This document shows, piece by piece, positions 47,643 through 49,258 of a DNA stretch of 64,000 nucleotides. The translations under genes and the position numbers were made by a program. The notes beneath the pieces were generated by a model that saw only the letters and a program-made list of their open reading frames with translations, was not told the DNA's origin and ran no database searches. The stretch is from the NCBI GenBank assembly GCA_013285585.1, contig JABDHH010000003.1, positions 8,786 to 72,785 on the forward strand, given 5' to 3'. The number at the start of each line of letters is the position of its first letter. Position 1 is the first letter of the stretch. Origin of the DNA: Chlamydiota bacterium. GTDB lineage: Bacteria; Chlamydiota; Chlamydiia; Chlamydiales; SM23-39.

Positions 47643-48758
47643 CTATTCAACAAGTGAGAATTTGATAATGTTCGTCATCCAAGCTTTGTTACTTTTCTTT
47701 TGGATGTCTCCGATTATTTTAACCCGATTCCCGTTCGCGTGTGCTTTAATAGCTTCTTGATACTGGTTGCTAGCTAACTTTAAATAGACGGTTCGATTTT
47801 GGTCGTCAGATACATCGATAATTTTAACTTCTCCATCAATTTGTGACGGGCCTTTATCAAGGCCGATAACATATCCAACTATCTCTGCCTCTTCCTCAGG
47901 AAGATTCGCTTTTAGGTAATTGCCAGCTTCTTTAAGAATCTCAGCTACATCTTTTCTGATCACAATACGATTCGCGGAGTGGAATGGATGAGGTCTAGCT
48001 AATGACCAACTAAAATCAAAGCTCACCTCTGACGATCCTGCATTTGTTACAACATCTGCCAATGCTTCACAAAAATTCGAACTCATTCCCTGCCTCACCG
48101 TATCTTTAAAATACTGAGCTTCTCCGCGATTTGCTGCTGCAATAGATGTTTTAAGAATTTCTTCTAATTGACACATTACCTTACGAGAAAAAGGGAGTTC
48201 TGCTTCCGAATTCTCAAGATTTACATCGGTCACTAGAGCAGGTGTTACTGGAGAGTGTATCTTAAAAACAAAGCTTCCATGTTCAGTGTGTCCCATCTCG
48301 AGAGTTTCAATATATTGCTGCACTTGTTTGGGACGTGAGCGATAGTGTGGTTTAGGTTCAATCACCGAATTTGCTGTAGCAGCCAACATATCTAGAGCTC
48401 GATCCATCACTTTGGTAGCATTTGCAAAATTAACACCATTGCCTTTGGTGGTGTTGAGTGTGATTCGAAGTGTGTCTGTGCATAGAGACTTCAAGTCAGC
48501 AATAATGCAGTCGTATGGTCGGTTCTCAGCTACATGAAGTGTCTCAAGGAATTCTGCCATGCGCAATCTATAGTCGCTAAGTCTAGTGTCAAGAGGTAGC
48601 AGAATTTCGATATTTTCAAATTCCTTTGTGGAATTTACCCATACGCTGGCTAAGTCCTCTATGTCTTTTTCAAATTTCCAATTTTTCCATTTTAGATATC
48701 GCTGACAATGCAATGGCAAAATATCTTGCATATAGGTGGAACTGCCTTGTGAACTCAT
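47643..48758 (-). CDS. hypothetical protein coupled to the DUF4365 gene
   Basis: 371 aa; ATGA overlap with the upstream gene; GHTEHGSF and G.S.NFCEAL motifs; OB-fold-like C-terminus. Confidence 0.8.
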   Translation of the reverse strand: MSSQGSSTYMQDILPLHCQRYLKWKNWKFEKDIEDLASVWVNSTKEFENIEILLPLDTRLSDYRLRMAEFLETLHVAENRPYDCIIADLKSLCTDTLRITLNTTKGNGVNFANATKVMDRALDMLAATANSVIEPKPHYRSRPKQVQQYIETLEMGHTEHGSFVFKIHSPVTPALVTDVNLENSEAELPFSRKVMCQLEEILKTSIAAANRGEAQYFKDTVRQGMSSNFCEALADVVTNAGSSEVSFDFSWSLARPHPFHSANRIVIRKDVAEILKEAGNYLKANLPEEEAEIVGYVIGLDKGPSQIDGEVKIIDVSDDQNRTVYLKLASNQYQEAIKAHANGNRVKIIGDIQKKSNKAWMTNIIKFSLVE

Positions 48759-49258
48759 GATACCAGCTCCTTCTTCCCAACATTTTCCATCAAGTCATCT
48801 AGCGCGTGTACATTGAAAATTTGGTTTTTTGGTATCTGCACAGTAACAGTATAGGTGTTTTCACTAGGAGGATAACCTTTTAAATCCATCCAATATCCGC
48901 ATTTCATCATAGATAACATTTCTTCACTATGGTTCAACCATAACAAAGGAGAGTCTGCCGAAAGAAGAATACAGATCAAAAATCTGGGAACAAGCACGTT
49001 AGTGTCTCTTAAATCATTATAATTTTTAATTTCAAGGGGATAATGAATATACTCGTCTTTGACTAAATCTTGTGCGGAGGCTTTAAGTTGTGCTTCAAGA
49101 CGAGGCGATCGTGTATAGCTGTTTTTAGAGTTGCTTAGGAATTGGATATCGATACTATCATCATCAACTACGGGCCGTGATGTCCCATAGCCTGCAACGG
49201 ATGCGATTGCATGTACATATGCATAACTAAATTCTTCTTTTCTTTTGCCGAGGTCCAT
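48755..49258 (-). CDS. DUF4365 (PD-(D/E)XK restriction-endonuclease-like) protein
   Basis: KEEFSYAYVHAIAS.AGY, DDDSID, QLKAS, KNYNDLR and YW.DL.G motifs. Confidence 0.8.
   Translation of the reverse strand: MDLGKRKEEFSYAYVHAIASVAGYGTSRPVVDDDSIDIQFLSNSKNSYTRSPRLEAQLKASAQDLVKDEYIHYPLEIKNYNDLRDTNVLVPRFLICILLSADSPLLWLNHSEEMLSMMKCGYWMDLKGYPPSENTYTVTVQIPKNQIFNVHALDDLMENVGKKELVS

Follow-up and report, generated by a model that had tools for sequence, protein, structure and literature searches.

The stretch of DNA analysed here (the window) comprises 64,000 nucleotides (nt) from a Chlamydiota bacterium of the lineage SM23-39 (GenBank assembly GCA_013285585.1, contig JABDHH010000003.1, positions 8,786 to 72,785). 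Inserted between pyrI and pyrC it carries on the minus strand two genes, gene 1 and gene 2, whose products of 167 and 371 amino acids (aa) belong, as judged by their profile matches, to the phage-defence candidate system PDC-M02 and are called M02A and M02B in the following. Both open reading frames (ORFs) start with ATG; they overlap by 4 nt (ATGA, the stop of gene 1 and the start of gene 2), and the sequence AGGAG sits 9 nt 5′ of the ATG of gene 2. The two intact, translationally coupled genes of a preliminary description of this DNA, which was made from the letters and an ORF list, are present as described. The pair is real and intact, and its matches lie far beyond chance (E values of 1.6e-56 and 1.6e-85 in PADLOC; 2994 representative homologues of gene 2).

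Identity of the gene pair

In a comparison with PADLOC-DB v2, gene 1 matches 25 models of PDC-M02A (the best, with E 1.6e-56, aligning residues 1-164 to positions 1-163 of a profile of 165) and gene 2 matches 38 models of PDC-M02B (the best, with E 1.6e-85, aligning residues 9-370 to positions 10-374 of a profile of 380). The order of genes in PDC-M02, A before B on the same strand and adjacent, is also that of the window. From these matches the pair is identified as a member of PDC-M02. The preliminary description had held that no named system could be assigned and had listed a match to a named system among the outcomes that would speak against it; since both proteins match PDC-M02A and PDC-M02B over their full length, this is the outcome that was found. 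The main result at this locus is therefore the correct label: the pair is PDC-M02 and not an unassigned system.

The PDC set consists of 145 candidates, which Payne, Hughes, Fineran and Jackson obtained by "guilt-by-embedding" in BREX, DISARM or type I restriction-modification (R-M) systems and which were put into PADLOC as predictions, without testing (bioRxiv 10.1101/2024.01.29.577857; this and the other papers named by identifier are cited from parts of their text). The label M02 is absent from the main text of that preprint, as it is from the other main texts searched, and in the DUF4365 literature searched no two-gene DUF4365 system was evident by title or abstract. The features of the locus are collected in Table 1.

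Table 1. Positions of the gene pair, of the domains of M02B and of the surrounding features (window coordinates unless another contig is named).
Feature	Position	Strand	Remarks
Gene 1 (M02A)	48755..49258	minus	From ORF list; ATG start; 167 aa
Gene 2 (M02B)	47643..48758	minus	From ORF list; ATG start; 371 aa
M02B residues 7-88	48495..48740	minus	alpha-beta-beta-beta-alpha; by fold like HicA and the double-stranded RNA-binding domain (dsRBD)
M02B residues 92-256, middle domain	47991..48485	minus	Ferredoxin-like alpha/beta core with helical inserts
M02B residues 286-371	47646..47903	minus	Oligonucleotide-binding (OB) fold of the kind that binds single-stranded DNA (ssDNA)
Upstream leader	49259..49462	minus	Travels with the genes; portable unit of ~1.83 kb (49462..47633)
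Low-GC insertion, 4.58 kb	46875..51457		Between pyrC (start 46874) and pyrI (stop 51458)
AAA ATPase remnant	46902..47342	minus	C-terminal part of a ~380-aa AAA ATPase (PF01637/PF13173/PF13401); ATPase domain missing
Orphan piece of gene 1 (WLNHSEEMLS)	47439..47479	minus	Downstream of gene 2
IS630-type DDE transposase remnant	49474..49617	minus	Directly upstream of the cassette; stop-to-stop frame
Copies of the miniature inverted-repeat transposable element (MITE)	50632-50799; near 6268-6429, 7593-7754, 23623-23784, 33632-33793, 62136-62297		
Related locus L035	G231:C14, 3901-12456		hsdM-hsdS-[A-B]-hsdR, then PDC-S02, then a capP-like gene

Gene 1 encodes a DUF4365 nuclease

Gene 1 matches the Pfam family DUF4365 (PF14280; E 8.5e-23) with residues 8-159 on positions 1-138 of a profile of 139. 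It carries the sequence VDDDSID...EAQLK, in which the catalytic-type residues D32, D37, E55, Q57 and K59 are all present. Among 41 homologues of 36-84% identity there is no variation at D32, D37, Q57 and K59 and almost none at E55, and the protein retains 50 of the 52 columns that are conserved at 80% or more. The D..D...QLK motif of the PD-(D/E)XK type, pointed out before, is the DxGxD...QxK signature of DUF4365.

In EAT16, a toxin of an extracellular contractile injection system, single mutations at three of the four DxGxD...QxK positions, to which D32, D37, Q57 and K59 of M02A correspond, abolish toxicity in E. coli (PMC11297309). In TmuRE, the nuclease of the Argonaute system SPARDA, Q62 and K64, which are matched as well, are taken as the active site, and the SPARDA complex degrades DNA non-specifically after the Argonaute has found its target (PMC10810196). 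From its sequence, gene 1 is classified as a stand-alone DUF4365/DREN-like PD-(D/E)xK nuclease with an intact motif. Against the PDB, the single sequence of M02A yielded only a phytochrome (E 0.29) and its profile had no match at E≤10. A second DUF4365 protein was not found in the same genome, which is 63% complete, and a pattern search of the genome contigs for related loci gave 69 pattern matches, of which none was confirmed.

Gene 2 encodes a partner with three predicted domains

The family of M02B is large and uniform in length: it comprises 2994 representative homologue clusters at E≤1e-3, of which 303 remain at E≤1e-30. Of the 53 conserved columns M02B retains 48. The AlphaFold2 model, made from an alignment of 56 sequences, has a mean predicted local distance difference test (pLDDT) of 90 and a predicted template modelling score (pTM) of 0.82; residues 1-285 folded alone reach 91 and 0.87, respectively. 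Three domains can be distinguished in the model (Table 1). The first, although HicA-like in fold, has no invariant histidine. Conservation is highest in the middle domain (D95, R98, GxxExGS at 156-162, PFxR at 189-192, G224, N228, C230 and W251), for which structure searches gave no clear solved relative. The C-terminal domain matches the OB folds of RPA, SSB, PriB and the wedge of RecG in fold searches, which supports the OB-fold-like tail proposed earlier; the TEHGSF and NFCEAL motifs, until now described as conserved-looking, fall on nearly invariant columns. The proposal that gene 2 encodes a nucleic-acid sensor is borne out as far as the folds are concerned, which are of nucleic-acid-binding type; the sensing itself is inferred.

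Names for M02B were sought in several collections. It matches no Pfam family, and Pfam has no family common to its 56 relatives; NCBIfam gave one row at chance level, and the cluster look-up of close homologues returned no names. Its profile found in the PDB one chain of 50 aa (E 0.55). Foldseek against the PDB returned for the whole protein OB-fold rows only, none at E≤1e-3, and for residues 1-285 a best E of 0.3. The nearest named cluster in the ESM Atlas was DUF6575 at 0.77, which is under the lead level; BFVD held weak rows besides the homologue of phage LE1 (E 2.7e-23), and PHROGs places both proteins of the pair in families without assigned function.

The two genes occur as a conserved pair

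Within the phylum M02B was found in 21 places including that of the window, 17 of them full length, one cut by a contig end and three short fragments. Of the 17 full-length loci, 16 have a full M02A immediately before M02B and on the same strand; outside the phylum this holds for 6 of 7 loci on plasmids or phages. The carriers of the pair outside the phylum are plasmids of Entomospira, Rhizobium, Methylobacterium and Gluconobacter, an M. abscessus prophage and the Leptospira phage LE1; a Pigmentibacter plasmid carries M02B without the pair. With A directly before B in 22 of the 24 full-length loci examined, the pair is conserved as a unit, as had been expected.

The ratio of nonsynonymous to synonymous substitution (dN/dS, after Nei and Gojobori) was calculated with two close relatives from metagenome contigs, L046 and L047 (related loci and genomes are designated by L and G numbers). 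It is 0.074 (window vs L046), 0.099 (window vs L047) and 0.067 (L046 vs L047) for gene B and 0.113 (window vs L046, the one pair) for gene A. By these ratios the pair is under purifying selection.

The predicted complex of A and B scored 0.54, the best of three controls 0.00; the partner has a pLDDT of at least 78, and at least 75% of the contacts recur between the runs. Of 157 solved complexes 116 attained the mark applied to such predictions, and so did 2 of 215 mismatched pairs; at scores of 0.60 or less it was attained by only 18 of the 157 solved complexes together with both passing mismatches. The structure prediction thus lends weak support to the formation of an A-B complex.

The insertion between pyrI and pyrC

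The GC content is 0.39-0.42 over 47001-51000 vs about 0.50-0.52 in the flanks. In three of the four same-genus genomes with the locus (G003, G004 and G005) pyrI and pyrC are directly adjacent, their aligned ends lying 20-23 nt apart; in G001 pyrI was not found. The "island" in which the pair had been placed is therefore a real low-GC insertion, and it bears the scars of mobile elements: an ankyrin gene split by a MITE, the IS630 remnant, the PDC-M02 cassette, the ATPase remnant and a truncated MITE end follow one another. In the fourth genome, G006, a different insert of ~0.9 kb (L011, about 1935-2812), which is repeat-rich with long inverted and direct repeats and apparently non-coding, lies between pyrI and pyrC. 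Because of this different insert the junction may be a recurrent insertion site. There is no tRNA gene in 44000-54000 and hence no tRNA attachment site at the island.

The ATPase remnant, which the preliminary description had recognized as such, matches only the C-terminal part of AAA ATPases of ~380 aa. It has 311 longer homologues; the 120 that were listed cover 79-88% of the 146-aa query at 62-90% identity, and most of them have a length of ~380 aa. PADLOC gave no match. The full-length ATPase of ~380 aa is unusually well conserved across many Chlamydiota lineages (62-79% identity). An intact copy was not found in this 63%-complete genome, and no paralogue turned up there for the fragments of the ATPase, of IS630 and of gene 1. 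The IS630 remnant matches Pfam DDE_3 (PF13358; E 9.8e-7; 29.2 bits at a cut-off of 28.6) on positions 79-125 of a profile of 146.

The orphan piece of gene 1 forms a 41-nt direct repeat, 90% identical to 48910-48950 (local alignment 34/36, score 62 vs a shuffle maximum of 29). A stretch of 32 nt in it agrees fully (100%) with the allele of gene 1 in L046 and L047, and the piece looks like a scar left by a cassette allele that was earlier or different.

The MITE-like element of 160 bp (TACCAAATATC...GATATTTGGTA) has terminal inverted repeats of ~36 nt, and all six copies in the window are flanked by 3-bp TNA target duplications. In the genome of 1.14 Mb BLAST found 72 matches with a length of 150 nt or more; since the element is palindromic and was counted in both orientations, these amount to about 36 copies. 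A solo truncated MITE end at 46885-46902, 10 bp from the start of pyrC, forms the pyrC-side border of the island. The ankyrin genes at 50727-51392 and 49580-50641 (minus strand) are one gene split by the MITE: when the element and one copy of the target are removed (163 bp), 751-163 = 588 = 3 x 196, the frames join and give the regular repeat ...NANDDS followed by GSSPLHFAARAGN..., with Pfam ankyrin matches.

Mobility and distribution

The metagenome contigs L046 and L047 align with the window at 88-91% nucleotide identity, exclusively from 49417 or 49462 to 47633-47635; their flanks differ. Because the homology stops at these ends, the portable unit consists of the two genes and a leader of about 200 bp. 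A third ORF, small and conserved, was considered for the leader but rejected by eye, indels shifting the frame between the window and L047. Rfam had no match in 46000-52000 of the window, and a promoter and terminator scan of the locus did not rise above shuffles (6 promoter sites vs 6.3 +/- 2.5 by chance).

Of 400 genomes sampled from the phylum, 18 contain M02B (13 of the 334 of high quality; 11 of 211 genera), as does 1 of the 40 nearest relatives. Except for one partial copy at 66%, no chlamydial copy exceeds 32% identity to that of the window, and a spirochaete plasmid copy is 31.8% identical to it. Since the chlamydial copies are no closer than this plasmid copy, the sequences point to repeated and independent acquisition of M02 in chlamydiae. 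M02B is also carried by plasmids (20 records) and phages (4 records). In two M. abscessus prophages (L003) the pair constitutes the first two genes at the prophage end and adjoins a WXG/polymorphic-toxin cassette, a position typical of accessory cargo.

In L047 a serine recombinase, represented by its C-terminus (Zn_ribbon_recom, E 1.2e-5), adjoins the cassette, as does a tRNA-like call, and recombinases are neighbours also in L002 and L048. Could the pair serve mobile elements in the processing of their DNA, as a nuclease of resolvase type with an ssDNA-binding partner, acting in recombination, replication restart or repair? DUF4365 resembles Holliday-junction resolvases, as noted in the EAT16 paper (PMC11297309), and the relatives of the OB fold named above would suit such a role. 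Yet the pair is also found, with no recombinase nearby, inside a type I R-M operon and beside abortive infection (Abi) systems; genes for replication or recombination do not accompany it consistently, and in the window it sits among dead mobile-element remnants and is still under purifying selection. We regard this explanation as very improbable.

Neighbours of related loci

Twelve chlamydial loci were fetched with 7 kb on either side, and ten of them (144 of 169 ORFs) were scanned with PADLOC at E≤1e-5. In L035 (Table 1) M02 is nested between hsdS and hsdR, and the locus as a whole is a compact chlamydial defence island. L036 has AbiEi/AbiEii, L037 a ShosA-like (DprA-type) gene, L038 PDC-S05, and L041 an ATPase, PDC-S02 and mad1/mad2-like genes; in L039 and L042 a mad2-like methyltransferase was the only match. 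Outside the phylum, the pair of the Entomospira plasmid is accompanied by three DUF262 genes, an Abi gene and HicAB, that of the Rhizobium plasmid by an STY4851-family protein and a DEAD/DEAH helicase, and that of L049 by RelE/ParE and a helix-turn-helix protein; LE1, which carries the pair, is a temperate phage. The defence-island association proposed before thus holds for relatives (L035, L036, L038 and L041), while the pair of the window lies among mobile-element scars.

HicAB, present in L002, and RelE/ParE with the helix-turn-helix protein in L049 are toxin-antitoxin (TA) pairs, and M02 may be asked to be one itself: M02A would be the toxin and M02B the antitoxin of an addiction module that stabilizes plasmids, prophages and islands without sensing any invader. 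The compact two-gene operon with its 4-nt overlap, the plasmid and phage records, and the toxicity of a DUF4365 domain in E. coli (EAT16; PMC11297309) agree with this. A partner of 371 aa with three domains, one of them an OB fold, is however far larger than a typical antitoxin; its most conserved residues lie in the middle domain rather than in a short neutralizing segment, and the embedding in the type I R-M operon of L035 fits defence better. An addiction module is therefore unlikely, although TA and abortive defence do not exclude each other.

No methyltransferase adjoins the pair in the window, as had been stated before; its neighbours are the ATPase remnant, the IS630 remnant and the ankyrin genes. 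A PD-(D/E)xK nuclease in such a setting, together with the mad2-like methyltransferase matches near L039, L041 and L042, brings to mind type IV-like or modification-dependent restriction, in which M02B would recognize some feature of the foreign DNA and M02A would cleave that DNA directly, without collateral damage to the cell. The fold matches listed for M02B, however, include no SRA, YTH, EVE or other known reader fold, and the DUF4365 nucleases so far characterized cut, according to the parts of the papers cited above, non-specifically once they are activated. Restriction of this kind appears improbable, even more so than an addiction module.

Proposed function

We propose, with a probability of about 0.6, that M02 is a nucleic-acid-triggered two-protein nuclease defence, in which M02A and M02B form a complex, the sensing of a cue by M02B licenses M02A, and DNA is degraded non-specifically. 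The cassette would have arrived horizontally as a unit of ~1.8 kb and now resides in the scar of mobile DNA between pyrI and pyrC. A and its obligate partner B would be made together by coupled translation and would form a complex that holds the nuclease inactive. M02B would detect a cue of invasion, be it single-stranded or replicating DNA of a phage or plasmid, or RNA; the cue would release or assemble the M02A nuclease, which would degrade DNA indiscriminately, and the invader would be stopped, probably at the expense of the cell (abortive infection).

Several observations weigh against this proposal. L023 and L051 are full-length B loci without a good A (in L023 M02A is a trace of 31 positions, and PADLOC detects no M02A there), and in L047 A is frameshifted and B intact. 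The frameshift may be an assembly error or real decay; because of these three loci M02B may not always need M02A. The score of the predicted complex lies in a band where a pass is false more often than true, except for a guess that had been likely from the outset. Three of the ten chlamydial loci scanned (L034, L040 and L043) showed nothing clear, the counts of defence neighbours stand without a background rate and are not quantitative, and in the window no immediate neighbour of the pair is a defence gene. Among the sequencing runs searched there was no RNA sequencing run with the locus; of the DNA runs, one contains it in full and may be its source, and eight contain a small share. The literature searched (main texts) holds no experiment on PDC-M02. 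A follow-up study of the PDC set tested S01, S09, S05, S70, S27, S02, M05 and HEC-01, M02 not being among the candidates named in the part cited, and four of the eight protected and four gave no protection (PMC12881386).

A more specific version of the nuclease defence is put forward tentatively, as possible but rather doubtful. M02 would be an Argonaute-free counterpart of SPARDA, in which a guide-less sensor licenses a free-standing DREN nuclease. The middle domain of M02B (D95, R98, E159, S162, R192, N228, C230 and W251) would form a ligand or catalytic pocket between the dsRBD-like module and the ssDNA-type OB fold, and the latter would sense chlamydial ssDNA replication intermediates. The known chlamydial phages are ssDNA microviruses.

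The M02 family is widespread (its 2994 representative clusters were mentioned above), on plasmids, in prophages and in R-M operons, and combines a SPARDA-type nuclease with the absence of an Argonaute. About two thirds of M02B fold confidently into domains without a clear solved relative. If M02 were shown to protect against phages or plasmids, this would add a common defence system and would show how a DREN nuclease is controlled without a guide. The window also illustrates that reduced, host-dependent bacteria still gain compact cassettes and, by the ratios given above, keep them under purifying selection.

Comparison with known systems

Unlike R-M systems of types I-III, the pair has no cognate methyltransferase beside its nuclease in the window. 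The likeness to HicA is one of fold and concerns the N-terminal domain of M02B only; without the invariant histidine the HicA-like fold does not make the pair a HicAB system.

Three of the systems compared share the DUF4365 domain. EAT16 has the same domain with the DxGxD...QxK motif (PMC11297309) but is a secreted toxin of two domains that is associated with a contractile injection system; here there is neither such a system nor a delivery domain. Divona, a single-gene cassette from chromosomal integrons of Vibrio, contains a DUF4365 domain and is reported to be anti-phage (bioRxiv 10.1101/2024.07.02.601686). As described in the part of that preprint cited, it is one protein in which DUF4365, a RecB/Mrr-like nuclease and crr6 are fused, whereas here the DUF4365 protein stands alone and has a partner of 371 aa.

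SPARDA has an effector of the same DUF4365 PD-(D/E)xK family with a QxK active site and the same logic of a non-specific DNase controlled by a partner that recognizes nucleic acid. M02A differs in being without APAZ, for which a protein of 167 aa with DUF4365 over residues 8-159 has no room. M02B differs in that it matches neither Piwi nor MID. A Piwi match was found in none of 56 members of the M02B family and nowhere in the genome (63% complete; the control was found in 2 of 14 genomes), and the fold searches of M02B listed no Argonaute. The likeness to SPARDA does not imply that recognition by M02 is guided.

PDC-M02 is the system to which the pair corresponds in every respect compared: the profiles match over their full length, and gene order, strand and adjacency are those of the candidate. 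A chlamydial relative, L035, shows the very context, embedded in a type I R-M system, from which the PDCs were predicted. There is no difference of substance; what is new is the host and the site, an insertion that interrupts the pyrimidine (pyr) operon in the metagenome-assembled genome of a chlamydia-like, environmental bacterium. The pair of the window is an ordinary new member of a catalogued, predicted candidate system.

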